This document shows, one piece after another, positions 1,992 to 10,320 of a stretch of DNA of 64,000 nt (the stretch's first letter is position 1; each line of letters begins with the position of its first letter). Source of the stretch: Shigella phage ESh18; sequence record ON528728, one strand, 5' to 3'. The translations under genes and the position numbers were made by a program. Below the pieces are notes generated by a model that ran no database searches, was not told the origin of the DNA, and saw only the letters and a list, made by a program, of their open reading frames with translations.

Positions 1992-2956
1992 TGTATTCTT
2001 TAGAGGAATTTAATAATCAAGCAATAAACGCAGATTTTCAACGTAATAATATGTTTAGCTGCGTTTTTGCGACAACTCCATCAACTAAAAGCTCTTCGTT
2101 GATAAGTTCAATTAGCAACTTTTCTTATAATAACTTGGGTCTAAATTCAGATTGGTTAGGATTGACTCAAGGCGATATTAATCAGGGAATTACCACGCTA
2201 ATTACTGCTGGCACACAAAAACTGATAAGAAAATCAGGGGTTAGTAAATATCTTATTGGTGCCATGAGTCAACGTACAGTTCAAAGTTTATTGGGTTCAT
2301 TTACAGTTGGTACATATTTAATTGACTTCTTTAATATGGCATATAATTCATCTGGATTGATGATATACTCTGTAAAAATGCCAGAGAATAGATTATCCTA
2401 TGAAACTGACTGGAACTATAACTCTCCTAATATTCGTATAACTGGGAGAGAATTAGACCCTTTGGTTATTTCATTTAGAATGGATTCAGAAGCTTGTAAC
2501 TATCGTGCAATGCAAGACTGGGTTAACGCTGTTCAAGACCCAGTAACTGGACTGCGTGCTTTGCCACAAGATGTTGAGGCAGATATTCAGGTTAATCTTC
2601 ATGCTCGTAATGGATTACCTCATACTGCAGTGATGTTCACCGGATGCATTCCAGTGTCAGTGAGCGCTCCTGAGCTATCATATGATGGAGATAACCAAAT
2701 AACTACATTTGATGTTACTTTTGCGTATAGAGTCATGCAGGCTGGGTCGGTTGATAGACAAGCTGCGCTTGAGTGGCTTGAATCTGCTGCTATAAATGGC
2801 ATTCAAAGCGTTCTCGGAAATAGTGGAGGTGTTACTGGACTATCTAATTCGCTTTCACGACTTAGTAGATTAGGAGGAACTGCGGGAAGCATTTCAAACA
2901 TTAATACTATGACGGGAATTGTCAATTCGCAAAGTAAAATATTAGGAGCAATATAA
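1991..2956 (+). CDS. 54: baseplate tail-tube initiator gp54
   Basis: 321-aa ORF overlapping gp48 stop (ATGTA... coupling); T4 gp54 is ~320 aa; followed by strong terminator. Confidence 0.8.
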   Translation: MYSLEEFNNQAINADFQRNNMFSCVFATTPSTKSSSLISSISNFSYNNLGLNSDWLGLTQGDINQGITTLITAGTQKLIRKSGVSKYLIGAMSQRTVQSLLGSFTVGTYLIDFFNMAYNSSGLMIYSVKMPENRLSYETDWNYNSPNIRITGRELDPLVISFRMDSEACNYRAMQDWVNAVQDPVTGLRALPQDVEADIQVNLHARNGLPHTAVMFTGCIPVSVSAPELSYDGDNQITTFDVTFAYRVMQAGSVDRQAALEWLESAAINGIQSVLGNSGGVTGLSNSLSRLSRLGGTAGSISNINTMTGIVNSQSKILGAI

Positions 2957-2960
2957 CAAT

Positions 2961-2990
2961 GGGGACCTTTCGGTCCCCATATTTTTATTT
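2961..2990. terminator. bidirectional intrinsic terminator hairpin GGGGACC-TTTC-GGTCCCC with flanking T/A runs
   Basis: Perfect 7-bp GC stem seen at 2961-2978 between convergent gene 54 (+) and 96-aa ORF (-). Confidence 0.7.
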
Positions 2991-3275
2991 ACGGAATGAA
3001 ATAAAAGCAGCAACTGAAGCAACTAAACTGTCTTCAATATAAACTTCAATTTTTACCGGAGCTTCTGACTCAAATTTACCTGTTACTACACCTTGGAAAA
3101 TGCTTTCAGTCTGCTCTGGCTTTGAAAAATTTTCAGAAGGAAAAATTCCGAACTTTTTATCTGTTCCAAAAATTTTGATAAATTCATCATAAACTGCTTC
3201 ATTAAAAGCATTATCAGCAGGAATAACGCCTTCAACTACAAGTTCTTGACCTAAAAAGCGCAAAGAAGATTTCAT
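2985..3275 (-). CDS. hypothetical protein (alt-downstream small ORF)
   Basis: 96-aa ORF with GAGGA RBS 7 nt upstream of ATG and its own early-promoter cassette (3282-3336). Confidence 0.6.
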   Translation of the reverse strand: MKSSLRFLGQELVVEGVIPADNAFNEAVYDEFIKIFGTDKKFGIFPSENFSKPEQTESIFQGVVTGKFESEAPVKIEVYIEDSLVASVAAFISFRK

Positions 3276-3281
3276 TTTGTG

Positions 3282-3336
3282 TTCCTCATGTTATGTCAGT
3301 AAAACTATTGTAACACAACACGAGGGACTTGTAAAC
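3282..3336 (-). promoter_or_regulatory. early promoter plus leader cassette (GTTTACA -35, TGtTACAAT extended -10, GAGGA RBS); copy A of a 54-bp repeat
   Basis: Sequence read directly; near-identical copy at 18629-18684. Confidence 0.5.
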
Positions 3337-5393
3337 TACATCTTGAACTTTTTAGACATTCCGTTGATGTTAACCAAAGAAGCCAAGATTTGAGAAACTT
3401 CGTTTTCCTCTTCTTTTGATTCTTCTACAAGGAATTGATTAAACCCAGCCATTGGACGAACTTCACCAGTTTCCATTAGATGATCGCCATCATATACCGA
3501 TTCTTCTAATTGTTCAGAAGGAGGAACGATTGTGCCTTCGATTAGATACTTATTATAAGCAGTTTCTTTCATCATGTACGTGCTCACTTTATTAATCTTC
3601 AGCAAAATTCCACGCGGTAAAATAACTTCAGCTTCTGATGGAAATCCTGATAAATGACCTGGAACGATAACTTTGATTCGCTCAGCCCCTTTAATTACCA
3701 TACCTACGCTAGTTTCAGCGTCTTCATTCGCATAAGCAGAGTGACTACCCATATGCATTAAATCTTCAGCATCAACAGAACCTTCTCCTTCACCAGAAAA
3801 TACTGCACCGGAATCATCTAGAGCCATATAGTTTTTACCATGCTCACCGAAGATGTTTGGTTTAAGCGACGTGGATACAAAGTTCTTGAAATAGAACATT
3901 TTGTTTTCAATATTATGACGTAAAGTTTTAAAAGTAACTTCTTGTCCACGATAAAGCGTAGTTCCTGGAGGAAGAACTGAACCTTTAGCGAATGCAGAAT
4001 CCATTGTCTCGATGTGTTTAATAGCTCGTTCCATGTATTCTTCACGGGTAGAATCTGGTTTACCCAAGAGGAACGAGTTCATTTCAACATATGAATCTGC
4101 ACAATAATCTTCAATTACATCAGACTCAGCCTGAGTTAATCCTTTTGGAGTTACTTCGGTGCTTGCATATTCATATGCCTGGGCAGCAGATTCATTAATC
4201 AATTTATAAATGCCATTCATGACAAATTGAATAATAGCTGTCTTTTCATCTGGCGTAGCTTTAGAACCTTTAACTAAATCATTAATAATTTTCTTAATAA
4301 CATCAAAGCTATTAGAAATATTAATGTCAGCAAGATCGCTTAAAATTTTATCAGTTTTATAATCAAAGAATTCTTTATTCTTTAAATATTCTTGAGAACC
4401 TTGATATGTTATATCGCTCTGCAACTTGATAGATGGATCACGTAAACGTGCATGGGCCAATGCAATATGATTTCGGAAGTTTTCTAGTTCATAATCGCTA
4501 GATTTAAAACGAGAAGCACTCCTCATACCACCGATAGCTCCTTTGCTGAAGTTTGAACCAATCTGGATAACGCCAGAGTTCATCGGACCTTCTGCTTTAT
4601 ATACCGGAACTTTAGATTCAAACTCTTGATATTTCTTAGCAGCGAAGCTATCACCCTGAAGTGAAGCATCGACAGTAGAATATTGAGCTTGTGCTGCTAA
4701 TCGACGACTAATTTTAGTTTTTTGAATAACAGCTTGATCCGTGCGCTTATCATTTTCTAAAGCAATAGAAGCAGCAACAGCGACAGCTTTAGGAACAGCA
4801 TTACCTGTTTTAACATCTACATAAACATCACCGACCTTCGATTCAACTTTTGTGAATAACTCAGTTGAAATAGGAGGTACACCTGGAATGTCTTCTAAAT
4901 TGGCATTTTTACGGTAAACCATAATATATGCATACTTTTTATCATAGTCCCAGATTTCCTTTAAAAGAACATATCGACCTGCTCCTTTAGTACGTACTAA
5001 ACGGTCAGCAATAACTTGCATTTGACGAGCAGCGCCATTTGTTTTACTTTTTAGTACGCGGAATAGGCATGCGTCAATTTTATACTGTTTCATTGTTTGA
5101 AGAGCAGTATCAAAAACAGCATTAATGACGCCAATTGGATTTCCACCCAAGTTTCTAAGCTTAACCAGCGATAATTTCTCGTTGACACCTATCATTACGA
5201 TATGCATCATTTTATCGCCTGGCTTAACGTTTTTATTCGTATCACCGCCAGAGGTGTATGTACAAAATCTAAATCCAGGAAGCACGCTTTCTTCACCGGC
5301 TTGAATAGCAAAAATTTGTGGTATTTTATGCTTAGGATTTAAGTTAACAACCGGCGCCGAAGCGCCGTCAAATAATTCTGTAATAAGTTCCAT
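3336..5393 (-). CDS. alt: Alt-family ADP-ribosyltransferase (downstream paralog)
   Basis: 685 aa (T4 Alt ~682 aa as I recall); R-S-E type ART motifs YRGQ ... FVSTS ... EAEVILPRG in C-terminal third; N-terminal ~230 aa closely similar to neighbouring paralog. Confidence 0.75.
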   Translation of the reverse strand: MELITELFDGASAPVVNLNPKHKIPQIFAIQAGEESVLPGFRFCTYTSGGDTNKNVKPGDKMMHIVMIGVNEKLSLVKLRNLGGNPIGVINAVFDTALQTMKQYKIDACLFRVLKSKTNGAARQMQVIADRLVRTKGAGRYVLLKEIWDYDKKYAYIMVYRKNANLEDIPGVPPISTELFTKVESKVGDVYVDVKTGNAVPKAVAVAASIALENDKRTDQAVIQKTKISRRLAAQAQYSTVDASLQGDSFAAKKYQEFESKVPVYKAEGPMNSGVIQIGSNFSKGAIGGMRSASRFKSSDYELENFRNHIALAHARLRDPSIKLQSDITYQGSQEYLKNKEFFDYKTDKILSDLADINISNSFDVIKKIINDLVKGSKATPDEKTAIIQFVMNGIYKLINESAAQAYEYASTEVTPKGLTQAESDVIEDYCADSYVEMNSFLLGKPDSTREEYMERAIKHIETMDSAFAKGSVLPPGTTLYRGQEVTFKTLRHNIENKMFYFKNFVSTSLKPNIFGEHGKNYMALDDSGAVFSGEGEGSVDAEDLMHMGSHSAYANEDAETSVGMVIKGAERIKVIVPGHLSGFPSEAEVILPRGILLKINKVSTYMMKETAYNKYLIEGTIVPPSEQLEESVYDGDHLMETGEVRPMAGFNQFLVEESKEEENEVSQILASLVNINGMSKKFKM

Positions 5394-5396
5394 GAT

Positions 5397-7493
5397 TTAT
5401 CCTTGAACGAACTTGTAAGGCATGTTTGTAATATCTATGCAAGACGCAATAATTCCAAGAGATGATTCTACTTTCTGTTTAACATTTGATGAAACAAATG
5501 ATGCAAAGTCAACTCTGTCTTCTATTTCAATATCACCTGTCATTGCAACTACTTCGCCGGTTTCCATTAAACGGTCACCGTCATAAATTACCGATTCGGT
5601 GAGTTCTTCGGTGGTCATAACTTCAGCTTGAATGAGTTTTGTATTATTAGACGTGGTTCCGTCATTATTAGAAGCATCAGTTATTTTATTAACTTTGACC
5701 ATCAATCCGCGCGGTAGAATAACTTCGGCTTCTGTTGCTATTCCGAGACTTCCTGGATATACAACATTAACTTTATGAGCTCCATCAATTGCCCATCCTA
5801 TTTGAACTTTAACGTATTCAGGATTTTCTTTATACGCTCTTATTTCGTTTGGATTAATAGTTATTCCTTCTTCATTTTTATCAACTGTTAATTCATTGCG
5901 AGCTTCTGGTTCTAAAAGACCAATACCAGCATGTGTAATTCCAAAACGTCCAAAAATGATAGGAGTTAAAGAAGTAGATACAAAATTTCTGAAATAGAAC
6001 ACTTTATTTTTAACTAGTGCTTCGTATATAGGAGCAGTCATACTTTGAGCACGATAAACTGTAATGCCTTCCGGTATGCGGTCACCATTTTCAAAAGCTG
6101 AATCTAAATTATTTATAGCAGATTCAATTTCTTTTTCACTCATTACATCATATCGTTCTGGATTGTAACGACCTAAAAGAAGATTATTAATGTCTGTATA
6201 TCCTGAACCACAATATTCTCTAATACCTCGCTTTTGTGATGGAGTATATTTAGAACCATCACGGGCAATAGTAATATCAATCATTGGACCAGCACCAATT
6301 CCAGAAAAGCTATAAATCATTCGTTTGAGGAATTTAGTTTTTGCTGCATTCCATGCATTTTTAGTTATTTCTCCCCAGACTTCATCTGGTTGCCCTTTAC
6401 GAGTTTTATTATGTTTATCAAGCCAATTATCTTTATATTCTTCAAAGAATTTATTAACAGCTGCTGCGTATTTCTCTAAACATTTTATTGAAGTAGTTGG
6501 TTCATTTTTGATTGCGTTAAAAATTACATCTTTAATTTTTTCTGAAACTTCATCAACCTCACTTTTTGAAAAGAATTTATAGTCATAGTGAAGTTCATTC
6601 GCAGTTCCTTCGGCAATAATTTTTGCTGCCTTAGTTTTAGAAGCTAACGAATTAATTCCAAGCTTCATTTCTTCTGCTTCGGGAATTAAAGGAGCGGTAG
6701 CAGGTTTATTGAAATTAGCTGCGGTAGATTCATACTTCTGGAATAATTCACTTTCAAATCTAGAAGATTCCAATGATTGACTTTGCGCAATTGCTCTACG
6801 TGAAATTTTAACTTTAACGATTACAGCTTGGTCAGAACGTTTATCATTTTCTTGCGCAATAGATGCTGCAATTGCCTCATTTTTAGTTACTTGAGCTCCA
6901 GTATCTTTATTGATATAAACATCACCGACCTTCGATTCAACTTTAGTAAAGAGCTCGGTACTAATTTCCGGAACTCCTGGAATGTCTTCTAGTGATACAT
7001 TTTTGCGATGTATAAGAATATATGCATACTTTTTATCGTAATCCCAGAGTTCCTTAAGAAGGACGTATCTGCCACCTGAACGACTGCGGATAAGTCTATC
7101 AGCAATAAGTTGAATTTGACGAGCTTGACCAGCAGTTTTAGACTTAAGAATACGGAGCATGCAGGCATCAATTTTATACTGACGCATCGTTTGCATTGCA
7201 ACAGTAAAAACTGAATTGATATAATTAATTGGGCTTGGACCAAGACCTTTTAATTTAGCAATTGAACCTTTAGCAGTTAATGTAAAAGGAACAATATGCA
7301 TCATTTTATCGCCCATCTTTAAATCACGATTAGTATCACCTCCAGATGTATAGGTACATAAACGAAAGCCTGGTTGTTCAATTGCATCATCAACATGAAC
7401 TGAAAAAATTTGTGGTATTTTCTTCTTTGGATTTAAGTTTGTAATCGGAAGAGTAGTATCTTCGTCAAATAATTCTGTAATAAGTTCCATCAT
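5397..7493 (-). CDS. Alt-family ADP-ribosyltransferase (upstream paralog)
   Basis: 698 aa; shares MELITELFD... N-terminus and YRAQ ... FVSTS ... EAEVILPRG catalytic motifs with 3336-5393; central region divergent; late-promoter motif just upstream. Confidence 0.7.
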   Translation of the reverse strand: MMELITELFDEDTTLPITNLNPKKKIPQIFSVHVDDAIEQPGFRLCTYTSGGDTNRDLKMGDKMMHIVPFTLTAKGSIAKLKGLGPSPINYINSVFTVAMQTMRQYKIDACMLRILKSKTAGQARQIQLIADRLIRSRSGGRYVLLKELWDYDKKYAYILIHRKNVSLEDIPGVPEISTELFTKVESKVGDVYINKDTGAQVTKNEAIAASIAQENDKRSDQAVIVKVKISRRAIAQSQSLESSRFESELFQKYESTAANFNKPATAPLIPEAEEMKLGINSLASKTKAAKIIAEGTANELHYDYKFFSKSEVDEVSEKIKDVIFNAIKNEPTTSIKCLEKYAAAVNKFFEEYKDNWLDKHNKTRKGQPDEVWGEITKNAWNAAKTKFLKRMIYSFSGIGAGPMIDITIARDGSKYTPSQKRGIREYCGSGYTDINNLLLGRYNPERYDVMSEKEIESAINNLDSAFENGDRIPEGITVYRAQSMTAPIYEALVKNKVFYFRNFVSTSLTPIIFGRFGITHAGIGLLEPEARNELTVDKNEEGITINPNEIRAYKENPEYVKVQIGWAIDGAHKVNVVYPGSLGIATEAEVILPRGLMVKVNKITDASNNDGTTSNNTKLIQAEVMTTEELTESVIYDGDRLMETGEVVAMTGDIEIEDRVDFASFVSSNVKQKVESSLGIIASCIDITNMPYKFVQG

Positions 7494-7513
7494 AGCCTCT
7501 CTAGTGTTTATTC

Positions 7514-7521
7514 TATTTATA
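7514..7521 (-). promoter_or_regulatory. T4-type late promoter TATAAATA (minus strand) upstream of Alt paralog
   Basis: Reverse complement of tatttata at 7514-7521, about 20 nt upstream of start codon at 7493. Confidence 0.5.
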
Positions 7522-7528
7522 AAATTAA

Positions 7529-7543
7529 AGGCCCGAAGGCCTT
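7529..7543 (-). terminator. intrinsic terminator hairpin GGCC-cgaa-GGCC followed by T-run on minus strand
   Basis: Seen directly after stop of 62-aa ORF. Confidence 0.5.
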
Positions 7544-7731
7544 TAGTAATCTAGTGGTAAGAGAGTACGATATATTTCAAACTTTGGTCCTTTTTCATAG
7601 GCATCAAATGTTTCTGTAAATTTATTATAAGCGTATGCATCTACAAATTCGAGAATGACTTGTGATACAGAAGTAGAAACATCTCCGCCTTCTTTTTGAG
7701 CAATGACAATTGTTTCTAAGTAAGCTTTCAT
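7543..7731 (-). CDS. hypothetical small protein
   Basis: 62-aa ORF overlapping ligase stop (coupled). Confidence 0.5.
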   Translation of the reverse strand: MKAYLETIVIAQKEGGDVSTSVSQVILEFVDAYAYNKFTETFDAYEKGPKFEIYRTLLPLDY

Positions 7732-9191
7732 AAACCAGTTACCTCATGAAAATCACCAAATACATCCTCGAATGTATTAGCTTTAGTTTTATCTTCACGT
7801 AAACGAATCGCAATCGGAAGAAATAATTTAACGTAATCAGTGCGGCCATCAGATTTTAACCAACCGTTGCATTCGCACTCTAGAATTTTTCCAATATAAT
7901 AATTTTGGTTTTCCATAATGCGAGTACGGTCAAGTTCATGTGATTTTACGCCGGCTTTGTCTTTTAAGCCTGAACCAGCATTTACTTTAATTTTTCCACA
8001 CTCTGACTCAAGAATAAATCCACCTGCTTTAGTAGGGTCTTTACGGTGAGGATAAATTCCTACAATTTTTAAATCAACATCAATTACTTCTTTAAATTTA
8101 TAGAGATTTTTTGAACGGGCATTTTCCCATAACCCATCAACGTTTTTGAGAATAATACCTTCAAGACCTTGATCAATATACTTTTTGTAAATTACCTTAG
8201 CTTCATCTAGGTTATTTACTACCTGGTTTTCAATTAAAATTACTTTATCATATCCTGATGTCATTTGTTCTAGTTTAGAAAAACGTACATCATATTTTAA
8301 ACGAAACGCCGGAAGACCGTATATTTCTACCAACGGTACATAATCCCAGACCTGAAACTTCATGCATTGTGCTTCTTTTTCAGAAATGGTTCCCTTTAAA
8401 GATTTATTGGCGATGCCATTAGATGCAGTACGAGATTCAGCTACTTCGGCGAATTCTTTAGCTTTACTAATTTCAGGATAAGCATCAAAAAGAAAATCTA
8501 GGCCTTCTGGCTCCTTTTTAACTTGCTCATGGTATACCAATTCGCCATCAATTAACACACCTTCTGGATGAATCTGGCGGGCTTCAGCGGTCATTTTGAT
8601 TAACTCTTCTTTGAGAAGGTCTAATCCTAGATATTCATTACCAGCTCGTGATAAAAGACGAACATCATCTAATTCATCACCTCTGACTTCGGCAAAACAC
8701 CGAGCTCCATCAGCTTTTAATTGGGCAAAGGCTGGAAATTTGATATTCTTATTAATGCCTTTTTCATCATAAGAACTTGCCAGCATTTGAGGTTGTTCAG
8801 GAATTAAACCTGGCCAAACTTTGTTTGCAATAGATACTGAAGCACCGCATTCAAGGTCTCGCATCATCACCCGACGCAAAACTTCAACATCATCCTTTTT
8901 ACCATCGGTGATATATCCAGTTAATTCTTCAATTGCCGCATTTCCAGTCAATTTCCGAGTAGCTAATGTGAATTCAATGAAGTCAAGCATATCGGTAAGA
9001 GTCAACATTCCAAAACTCTGGGTAGCAATACCAGGTTTAGGCCATTTCTTGATATAATACTGTAACCCACGAGAATAAGTTAGACGATATACTCGTTTAA
9101 GCAATTCATTATCTTTATTCTTTTCAAGAATTGCTTGCTTCTGCTTAGTTGAACCAATAGATGCTATTTCGTTCAGAATTTTAAGAATCAT
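7728..9191 (-). CDS. 30: ATP-dependent DNA ligase gp30
   Basis: 487 aa, same as T4 ligase as I recall; active-site lysine context AQLKADGARC (KxDG motif). Confidence 0.9.
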   Translation of the reverse strand: MILKILNEIASIGSTKQKQAILEKNKDNELLKRVYRLTYSRGLQYYIKKWPKPGIATQSFGMLTLTDMLDFIEFTLATRKLTGNAAIEELTGYITDGKKDDVEVLRRVMMRDLECGASVSIANKVWPGLIPEQPQMLASSYDEKGINKNIKFPAFAQLKADGARCFAEVRGDELDDVRLLSRAGNEYLGLDLLKEELIKMTAEARQIHPEGVLIDGELVYHEQVKKEPEGLDFLFDAYPEISKAKEFAEVAESRTASNGIANKSLKGTISEKEAQCMKFQVWDYVPLVEIYGLPAFRLKYDVRFSKLEQMTSGYDKVILIENQVVNNLDEAKVIYKKYIDQGLEGIILKNVDGLWENARSKNLYKFKEVIDVDLKIVGIYPHRKDPTKAGGFILESECGKIKVNAGSGLKDKAGVKSHELDRTRIMENQNYYIGKILECECNGWLKSDGRTDYVKLFLPIAIRLREDKTKANTFEDVFGDFHEVTGL

Positions 9192-9457
9192 TGTTCATCC
9201 TTTAGAGTTTGGTTTACAGCTCTATTATAAATCAATTCATCATTAAGCTCAGTCAAAGACCTATGATATGTAGTTCTAACTTTATTTCCTTGCATCCAGT
9301 GCTTGATATAAATGAAACCTTGCTCTACACATTTTTTAAAAATTCGTTCGTCTTTTTGAGCTCGGAATTCTGGATTGCATCTAAAAAATTGATTTACGTG
9401 ACCATAATCACGTGTAGTATTACCTTCATTTTCATAAATAGTGTGAACGACAAACAT
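9188..9457 (-). CDS. hypothetical protein (30.1-position)
   Basis: 89-aa ORF, overlapping neighbours. Confidence 0.5.
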   Translation of the reverse strand: MFVVHTIYENEGNTTRDYGHVNQFFRCNPEFRAQKDERIFKKCVEQGFIYIKHWMQGNKVRTTYHRSLTELNDELIYNRAVNQTLKDEQ

Positions 9458-10320
9458 TAGAATGCTCCTTGGAAAATATTATCACCACTAGTAAATCTAT
9501 TAAAATACCCTGCATCACCAGGCTTAGTATAACTCCACGTATGGAATGGATTCATATGATACGGGTGTGTATAATATGGATTATATGGATGTGTATAATA
9601 TGGATTATACGGATTAAATCCAGGAGTTCTCCAGGTAGTGTTCCAACGAAAAGAATCGTTTTTAACCATCTTCTCAATTACATCTTTTATAGCTTTTTCA
9701 CTATCAAAACTTTCTTTATTTTCCTTCGGTGAAAAAAGCTTATTTTCTACATCATTCCATGTATAAACTCGCTGCGCAGTTTTTGGAATATTGTCACGCT
9801 CTCCTCGAGCCATCCAATAAACCGGAACATTTAATATTTCACTCGCATGATCGCAGTGGTGAGCAAGATCGTCAATATAACAAATTACGTTATATTTCTC
9901 TTTTGCCTTTTTGAATAACTCTTCTTTTGAAGAATCATGACCACACATCATTACTTCTGAGAAGGCACCAGGAAAAAGAGCATTCAAATTAAATTGACGA
10001 TTCAACAGAGCGTCAATAGAATCACCCAATGCTGTAACAGCTACAAAATTATAATCTTCTTTTAATTTGTTAATTACACACAGAGCATCTTTATACGGAG
10101 ACAAGTAACGAATAAAATCTGAACGATTGTATTTTTCAATTAACTTGACGCCAAGTTCTTCATCACAATTAAATAGTTTACCTGGAGAAATAAATTTCTC
10201 ATCTTGGATCATTTTTAAAATATGTTCTAACGGAAGATTATATTTCTGAGCAAAATAAGGAAGACCTGATTGCCAGCTTAAACATACTCCATCAATATCA
10301 GTTAAAATAGTAGGCTTCAT
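9457..10320 (-). CDS. HAD-superfamily hydrolase-like protein (putative phosphatase/nucleotidase) with repeat-rich Tyr/Pro/His C-terminal tail
   Basis: 287 aa; N-terminal LTDIDGV motif resembling HAD motif I (DxDG[TV]); C-terminal NPYNPYYTHPYNPYYTHPY encoded by 24-bp tandem DNA repeat. Confidence 0.55.
   Translation of the reverse strand: MKPTILTDIDGVCLSWQSGLPYFAQKYNLPLEHILKMIQDEKFISPGKLFNCDEELGVKLIEKYNRSDFIRYLSPYKDALCVINKLKEDYNFVAVTALGDSIDALLNRQFNLNALFPGAFSEVMMCGHDSSKEELFKKAKEKYNVICYIDDLAHHCDHASEILNVPVYWMARGERDNIPKTAQRVYTWNDVENKLFSPKENKESFDSEKAIKDVIEKMVKNDSFRWNTTWRTPGFNPYNPYYTHPYNPYYTHPYHMNPFHTWSYTKPGDAGYFNRFTSGDNIFQGAF

Follow-up and report, generated by a model that had tools for sequence, protein, structure and literature searches.

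A tandem pair of Alt-family ADP-ribosyltransferase genes in Shigella phage ESh18 and the remnant of its second member in phage T4

The tandem alt pair

The textbook relative of the genes reported here is alt of phage T4, which encodes an NAD+:arginine mono-ADP-ribosyltransferase (gpAlt). This enzyme is packed in the phage head in about 40 copies and injected with the DNA (PMC9958956, PMC9026906). The targets of T4 Alt are RNA polymerase alpha (PMC9958956) and the MazEF toxin-antitoxin system (bioRxiv 10.1101/2025.11.20.689424). It also contributes to evading the defence Mokosh type I, against which T4 Alt restores plating while its counterpart in phage Bas37 (Bas37_0033) does not (bioRxiv 10.1101/2025.11.20.689424). 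Virion mass spectrometry of T4 Alt has shown that gp21 removes 6 N-terminal residues (ITE-6) and 63 C-terminal residues (LTE-619) from the protein (PMC5694885; reviewed in PMC9026906). In a stretch of 64,000 nucleotides (nt) of Shigella phage ESh18 (sequence record ON528728; the whole stretch is called the window here), two such genes are present in tandem: alt and a downstream copy, alt.-2 or Alt2. The pair is real, common in this phage group and already annotated, and as such is of modest interest. What is added here is the exact deletion behind T4 alt.-1/alt.-2, the constraint on both paralogues and the presence of both processing sites in each, and the exchange of cassettes at the upstream gene rather than in the pair. 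By analogy with T4 Alt, both proteins are likely to be packaged and injected arginine ADP-ribosyltransferases with different targets (a probability of about 0.72), with Alt2 probably being an uncharacterised injected enzyme. The genes and their parts are as follows (amino acids, aa; a slash marks the cleavage position in protease sites).

5397-7490, minus strand: alt, the upstream copy ('altU'), 697 aa when read from the second ATG; counterpart of RB32 alt and Bas37 bas37_0033
7473-7490, minus strand: MELITE, the N-terminal propeptide of alt, with the gp21 prohead-protease site ITE/L (from translation)
6771-7472, minus strand: alt conserved N-terminal alpha/beta domain, aa 7-240 (PF26846 Tevenvirinae_ADPRT; secondary structure from AlphaFold2, AF2)
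6261-6770, minus strand: alt variable all-helical region, aa 241-410 (predicted helical)
5595-6260, minus strand: alt ADP-ribosyltransferase domain, aa 411-632 (R480 at 6051-6053, S-T-S at 5970-5978, E-A-E at 5724-5732)
5397-5594, minus strand: alt C-terminal propeptide, 65 aa and stop, after LTE/S (LTES motif at 5592-5603)
3336-5393, minus strand: alt.-2/'Alt2', the downstream copy ('altD'), 685 aa long; counterpart of RB32 alt.-2 and Bas37 bas37_0032
5376-5393, minus strand: Alt2 N-terminal propeptide MELITE (from translation)
4680-5375, minus strand: Alt2 conserved N-terminal domain, aa 7-238
4164-4679, minus strand: Alt2 variable all-helical region, aa 239-410
3501-4163, minus strand: Alt2 ADP-ribosyltransferase domain, aa 411-631 (R482 at 3948-3950, S-T-S at 3867-3875, E-A-E at 3627-3635)
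3336-3500, minus strand: Alt2 C-terminal propeptide, 54 aa and stop, after LEE/S (LEES motif at 3498-3509)

The two open reading frames (ORFs; 698 and 685 aa, minus strand, 5397-7493 and 3336-5393, with a 3-nt spacer) had been reported in a first-pass annotation made from the sequence alone, as had their membership of the Alt-family ADP-ribosyltransferases (ARTs) by the R-S-E motifs YRAQ/YRGQ, FVSTS and EAEVILPRG; both observations were borne out, the motif positions by translation. The upstream ORF begins mechanically at 7493 (698 aa). The likely start of alt is the second ATG at 7490 (697 aa), since a GAGG Shine-Dalgarno sequence lies 5 nt away and the gene is annotated in this way in T4, RB32 and ECO4. 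Both proteins give full-length matches to phrog_802 ('Alt-like RNA polymerase ADP-ribosyltransferase'; 3e-272 for alt and 5e-256 for Alt2) and also match PF03496, ADPrib_exo_Tox (2e-37 for the upstream and 2e-20 for the downstream protein); an NCBIfam match was obtained for neither. The catalytic residues, the absence of which from one copy had been considered in the first-pass annotation, are intact in both: R480, S505-T-S507 and E587-A-E589 in alt, and R482, S507-T-S509 and E587-A-E589 in Alt2. The Arg, S-T-S and E-x-E positions were found to be invariant across an alignment of 18 diverse homologues.

The order of these motifs (Arg, S-T-S, (Q/E)-x-E) is common to C3-like enzymes, Vis and binary toxins (iota, VIP2 and CPILE-a). 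The family profile alignment places E-A-E over the Q-x-E of the C3-like ART 4xsg, and the sequence F-P-S-E-A-E of Alt2 (aromatic-Pro-x-(Q/E)-x-E) parallels Y-P-G-Q-Y-E of that enzyme. However, these proteins are secreted bacterial toxins that lack the phage N-terminal domain (N-domain) and propeptides and share only 14-24% identity with the Alt proteins. C3 enzymes possess Q-x-E and target asparagine, whereas the Arg, S-T-S and E-x-E of alt and Alt2 are typical of arginine-specific enzymes; the best structural match is the arginine-specific Vis.

Both window proteins begin MELITE/L and possess a homologous C-terminal site, LTE/SVIYDGD in alt and LEE/SVYDGD in Alt2. As the two protease motifs mapped in T4 are thus both kept at homologous positions, we infer that Alt2, like Alt, undergoes packaging and processing, and these motifs are the main argument for it. 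Each protein is laid out in five parts: a 6-aa N-propeptide, a family-specific domain of ~235 aa, a helical region, a mono-ART domain resembling those of C3, iota and Vis, and a protease site followed by a C-propeptide of 54-65 aa. The C-terminal tail has a predicted local distance difference test score (pLDDT) of <50 over residues 629-685 of Alt2 and a low one over 652-689 of alt (AF2 model).

Comparison of the two proteins shows that they are homologous from end to end, with 41% identity (BLASTP, E=1e-157). By segment, identity is 66-67% for the N-terminal domain, 15-19% for the helical region, 34-35% for the ART domain and 42-43% for the C-terminal tail. The near-identity that had been attributed to the N-terminal ~230 aa was overstated (153/231 residues, 66%). 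Divergence of a central ~250 aa was seen as described, but its extent was misjudged: the unalignable part covers ~170 aa (~241-410), and the ART domain and tail have diverged too. The copies are therefore better described as old paralogues that diverged over their whole length than as one near-identical frame with swapped central regions. Recent gene conversion between alt and Alt2 in the window was likewise rejected: the nucleotide identity of the N-domains is 55-78%, and the only stretch that is 97% identical is the first 31 nt (encoding MELITELFD).

The proteins also differ by insertions and deletions between S-T-S and E-x-E, and in the residue that precedes E-x-E by three positions (F in Alt2 and I in alt, with P in T4 Alt). 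In C3-like enzymes, the loop corresponding to this residue contributes to substrate recognition. Because the helical regions, the loops from S-T-S to E-x-E and the residue before E-x-E all differ, the two enzymes would most likely act on different proteins of the host: one, for instance, on RNA polymerase alpha, MazF or defence components, and the other on other targets.

The PF26846 label of the N-terminal domain derives from precomputed matches on close homologues of the window proteins. When 1.84 billion representative proteins were searched exhaustively, only 69 clusters with this domain emerged, nearly all of them Alt-like, 600-710 aa in length and with the domain at the N-terminus, and seven of the ten distant members checked possess PF03496. 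The proposal that the domain is a general delivery module found on other types of effector was rejected on these grounds. Three remote relatives (P0183, 485 aa; P0184, 541 aa; P0185, 221 aa; E 7e-8 to 8e-7) have no Pfam match in the remainder of the protein and might possess a different or highly divergent effector domain. A GNAT fold was also considered for the N-domain: no Pfam or PDB sequence match was obtained, even at E<=10, and of a candidate GNAT acetyl-CoA motif A (Q/R-x-x-G-x-G/A) only R112 and G120 are conserved among 61 diverse N-domains, the final G/A not being so. A conservative guess is that the domain functions in core targeting or in protein-protein contacts within the prohead.

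Age, selection and the remnant in T4

ESh18 is a Tequatrovirus, and the 4.9 kb spanning the pair (2900-7800) is matched at 99.7% identity by Shigella phage ESh17 and at ~97% nucleotide identity by RB32, Shfl2 and Bas37/KarlGJung; 543 phage records match this region, 340 of them with coverage of at least 80%. Both alt genes are located between DNA ligase (gene 30)/alt.1 and alt.-3/gene 54, as in T4. RB32 (alt and alt.-2) and Bas37 (bas37_0033, "ADP-ribosyltransferase Alt", and bas37_0032, "Alt2") possess the same gene pair with the same gene lengths and spacing, with no substantive difference from the window. Segment by segment, the identity of the window proteins to their Bas37 counterparts is 96-100% throughout (98-100% for Alt2 and bas37_0032), and the junction between alt and Alt2 is conserved across the phages compared. 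Among Tequatroviruses the label of Alt2 varies between 'hypothetical protein', 'alt.-2', 'Alt2' and 'Alt-like RNA polymerase ADP-ribosyltransferase'.

It had been allowed for in the first-pass annotation that the pair could be widespread and already characterised in T4-like phages. The first part holds: the middle region specific to Alt2 is full-length (at least 80% coverage) in ~401 phage records, an intact second Alt-type gene being present in ~400 of the roughly 500 T4-like coliphage records that carry the region; it is annotated as alt.-2 (RB32) or Alt2 (Bas37), with the pair named alta/altb in JS98 and IME08. The duplication has also been remarked upon in comparative papers (PMC1524935, PMC4177764). 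As to the second part, a search of the literature on alt.-2/Alt2, Tequatrovirus virion proteomics and the phage ADP-ribosylome turned up neither functional work on the second copy nor a virion proteomic report of Alt2. The second gene has been little studied because T4 lost most of it.

Phages JS98 and IME08 (Dhakavirus) encode their tandem alta/altb pair at the same locus. Alt2 is 50% identical to altb of JS98 and alt is 49% identical to alta, whereas cross-comparisons give 35-39% and Alt2 is 44% identical to its own neighbour alt. Since Alt2 pairs with altb and alt with alta, these identities place the duplication before the split of Tequatrovirus and Dhakavirus. The Dhakavirus proteins differ from those of the window in that their N-domains are only 44-47% identical to them and their N-propeptide site is LNE/V rather than ITE/L.

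Both genes are under strong purifying selection and neither copy is decaying. In pairwise Nei-Gojobori comparisons among the window, RB32, ECO4 and JoYop, the ratio of nonsynonymous to synonymous substitution rates (dN/dS) was 0.025-0.048 in Alt2 and 0.025-0.063 in alt (dS 0.07-0.30), with the N-domain as the most constrained segment (dN/dS 0.02). The downstream gene is comparatively uniform, its nucleotides being 93-100% identical across Tequatroviruses and altb of JS98 and IME08 92-98% identical in amino acids.

T4 has no intact Alt2. T4 Alt (682 aa, NP_049811) shares 70-72% identity with the upstream copy and 41-46% with the downstream copy (46% overall with Alt2 of the window). The suspicion that the second copy corresponds to an alt.-x gene of T4 proved correct: T4 alt.-1 and alt.-2 are together a remnant of Alt2, with Alt.-1 (61 aa) 95% identical to Alt2 residues 1-56 and Alt.-2 (67 aa) 96% identical to residues 62-116. 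The remnant DNA is 95% identical to Alt2 of the window and lacks 1 nt in an A-run, which gives rise to the split into alt.-1 and alt.-2, and 1,699 bp, the ends of this deletion falling within a 9-bp direct repeat, CTAAAAAGT, with the following copies in the window.

5046-5054, minus strand: CTAAAAAGT, left copy, 5' breakpoint of the T4 deletion
3347-3355, minus strand: CTAAAAAGT, right copy, 3' breakpoint of the T4 deletion

What the annotation of T4 calls an "old duplication of the first part of gene alt" and that of RB32 an "apparent insertion in alt.-2" is this same difference. The breakpoints point to a deletion in T4, which makes T4 the derived state, rather than to an insertion gained by RB32; T4 lost Alt2 through a frameshift and a microhomology-flanked deletion. 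The T4-type deletion was identified in 91/499 records using a junction-spanning query.

Exchange of the middle region of the upstream gene

T4 Alt and alt of the window share their locus, the five-part architecture, propeptides, protease motifs and the R/S-T-S/E-x-E residues. Their likeness is unevenly distributed, however: aa 1-240 are 99% identical and the C-propeptide 94%, whereas the helical region is 30% identical (19% between alt and Alt2) and the ART domain 67%, with a sharp boundary at aa 240/241. At the nucleotide level, identity is 92-100% through codon 240, falls abruptly to 42-68% and returns to 88-98% from ~codon 616. The ART domain of alt (5595-6260) shares 95% amino acid identity with that of IME08 alta (2947-5037 of locus L007). 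Outside this domain the two proteins are 47-65% identical, their N-domains 47%. Within Dhakavirus, the ends of alta from JS98 and IME08 are 98% identical, with helical regions of 35% and ART domains of 61% identity, and JoYop possesses a T4-type alt together with a full-length Alt2.

The boundary between T4 and the window, the likeness to the IME08 ART domain, the differing middles of JS98 and IME08 and the combination found in JoYop together show the central part of the upstream gene to be a cassette that can be exchanged, even between genera. The real swapping is among the upstream-gene alleles of different phages and not between the two copies. Further cassette types were identified among metagenomic homologues (P0009, P0016 and P0018). 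Bas37_0033, which is 96-100% identical to alt of the window, cannot replace T4 Alt in the evasion of Mokosh type I, and the cassette differences therefore have functional consequences.

Three alt::alt2 hybrids (P0003, P0005 and P0007) were also identified, in which an alt-type N-terminus is joined to the remainder of Alt2 with crossovers at ~aa 45, 180 and 225. One hybrid (4001-6055 of locus L008, a Logan SRR24155011 contig) is the sole alt gene at its locus, between alt.1 and alt.-3. Such a single-gene hybrid locus is as would be expected from unequal recombination between the tandem N-domain sequences.

The arrangement invites an analogy, and no more than that, with polymorphic toxin systems, in that the ends linked to delivery, the N-domain and the propeptides, are near-identical within a genus and the effector middle is replaced even across genera. 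Unlike those systems, the alt locus has no immunity gene, no silent cassette array was seen, and delivery is by ejection from the phage head.

Expression, function and neighbouring genes

The late motif that the first-pass annotation had placed ahead of the upstream copy is present and is preceded by a hairpin.

7514-7521, minus strand: TATAAATA, T4 late-promoter consensus and putative promoter, 21 nt ahead of the first alt ATG
7526-7545, minus strand: G+C-rich terminator-like hairpin with T-run, after alt.1 and adjoining the alt promoter motif (terminator scan)

The hairpin is conserved in T4, RB32, JoYop, ECO4, Bas37, JS98 and IME08. Within the layout of hairpin, motif and start, TATAAATA is kept in the first five of these phages and reads CATAAATA in JS98 and IME08. 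By count alone TATAAATA is not enriched in the window (8 against 9.6 expected), so that its weight comes only from its conserved position. A second exact TATAAATA lies at 6110-6117 (minus strand) inside alt, ~720 nt upstream of the Alt2 start; it fits chance, although an internal late promoter serving Alt2 is conceivable. A separate Alt2 promoter was rejected, the only candidates being this chance-level internal TATAAATA and weak sigma-70-like matches that did not exceed those in shuffled sequences. Alt2 does have its own Shine-Dalgarno sequence, AAGGA, 7 nt ahead of its ATG (TAAATC plus spacer).

In the proposed course of events, alt and Alt2 would be transcribed late as one message from the TATAAATA promoter, with Alt2 translated from its own ribosome-binding site. 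Both proteins would then enter the prohead core, have both ends trimmed by gp21 and be injected with the DNA, after which both enzymes would ADP-ribosylate arginines of host proteins. Several points weigh against this course or against distinct roles for the two enzymes. The activity, packaging, cleavage and injection of Alt2 are all extrapolated from T4 Alt, and the difference in targets is drawn solely from sequence divergence. No promoter motif of its own was seen for Alt2 in the scans, so co-transcription is an assumption. The main text of the HIDEN-SEQ preprint describes a phenotype for bas37_0033 but nowhere mentions bas37_0032 (Alt2). Finally, T4 and at least 91 records lack Alt2, and it is therefore dispensable on common laboratory hosts.

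It is improbable, but worth weighing, that Alt2 is active and packaged yet redundant with Alt, modifying the same main targets and kept for dosage or robustness. The shared architecture, catalytic residues and processing sites would suit redundancy, as would the tolerated loss of either cassette (Alt2 is deleted in the 91 records, and the alt::alt2 hybrids keep only the Alt2 cassette). However, the paralogues have been distinct since before the split of Tequatrovirus and Dhakavirus, their helical regions (15-19%) and ART domains (34-35%) have little identity left, and each is held to its own sequence by strong purifying selection. Even the more closely related Alt variants of T4 and Bas37 are not interchangeable against Mokosh type I.

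Less probable again is that Alt2 is not a virion protein, and that it acts late in the producing cell as ModA and ModB do, or is hardly made at all. The scans that showed no promoter of its own and the literature search that found no proteomic report of Alt2 in virions are compatible with this explanation. The conservation of the N-propeptide, the family N-domain and the L-x-E/S site speaks against it, together with the first 31 nt being 97% identical to alt and the N-domain being under the strongest constraint (dN/dS 0.02). ModA and ModB of T4 do not possess the propeptide and N-domain modules, a further count against Alt2 acting as they do.

Modification of RNA or DNA rather than protein arginine by Alt2, or the attachment of NAD-capped RNA to proteins as by ModB, is very unlikely. 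The R-S-E ARTs do include nucleic-acid modifiers and RNA attachers (ModB; CmdT, DarT and RhsP2). Protein arginine is nevertheless favoured by the E-x-E motif and by Vis being the best structural match, and Pfam and phrog searches detected no nucleic-acid-binding domain. That the downstream copy is a decaying, functionless pseudogene, as the fragmented remnant of T4 might suggest, can practically be dismissed, being contradicted by the selection analysis (dN/dS 0.03-0.05 at dS up to 0.30), by an intact 685-codon frame with all catalytic residues and by full-length copies in ~401 records. The reading of both proteins as packaged, injected arginine ARTs with different targets is the one preferred.

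The order of the surrounding genes is that of T4, with gp48 and gp54 on the plus strand and the following genes on the minus strand.

2985-3275, minus strand: alt.-3
3336-5393, minus strand: the 685-aa ORF (Alt2)
5397-7493, minus strand: the 698-aa ORF (alt)
7543-7731, minus strand: alt.1
7728-9191, minus strand: DNA ligase

The product of alt.-3, downstream of Alt2, is a protein of 96 aa (DUF5498/PF17602), and a match to a T4-early-type promoter of its own was identified at 3307-3335 (minus strand; TTTACA, 17 nt, TACAAT, with TG upstream). Mutations that extend the C-terminus of T4 Alt.-3 lead to escape from the CmdTAC defence, of which wild-type Alt.-3 is neither trigger nor inhibitor (PMC11618068). 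A hairpin with a perfect 9-bp stem (ATGGGGACC...GGTCCCCAT) is located at 2959-2980, between the convergent genes 54 and alt.-3, and scores as a terminator on both strands. On the other side of the pair, alt.1 encodes 62 aa matching Pfam PF24647 'Phage_blade' (2e-29) and phrog_1976 (no known function), and it overlaps the ligase stop by 4 nt. Further along, a homologue of gene 30.2 (9457-10320, minus strand) encodes 287 aa, compared with 278 aa implied by the 837-nt span of T4 gene 30.2, and its C-terminal part possesses a short tandem peptide repeat, NPYNPYYTHPYNPYYTHPYHMNPF.

As an injected enzyme that reprogrammes the host, T4 Alt is the textbook case, and Alt2 is a reasonable experimental target beside it, for practical reasons rather than as a surprise; its study could reveal a new injected effector and what that effector acts on. 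Mosaicism of alt alleles could help to explain the differing defence sensitivity of closely related therapeutic phages. A broader reading, which we regard as tentative and doubtful, is that the alt locus is an effector-cassette system in which a genus-specific delivery frame of N-propeptide, N-domain and C-propeptide is kept and the middle, a helical target-recognition region with the ART domain, is swapped by recombination even between genera, while the much less variable Alt2 is a separate injected effector with a target of its own, plausibly a defence system or a host factor that T4 cannot handle. If this is true, the loss of Alt2 from T4 hid it from 50 years of T4 genetics.

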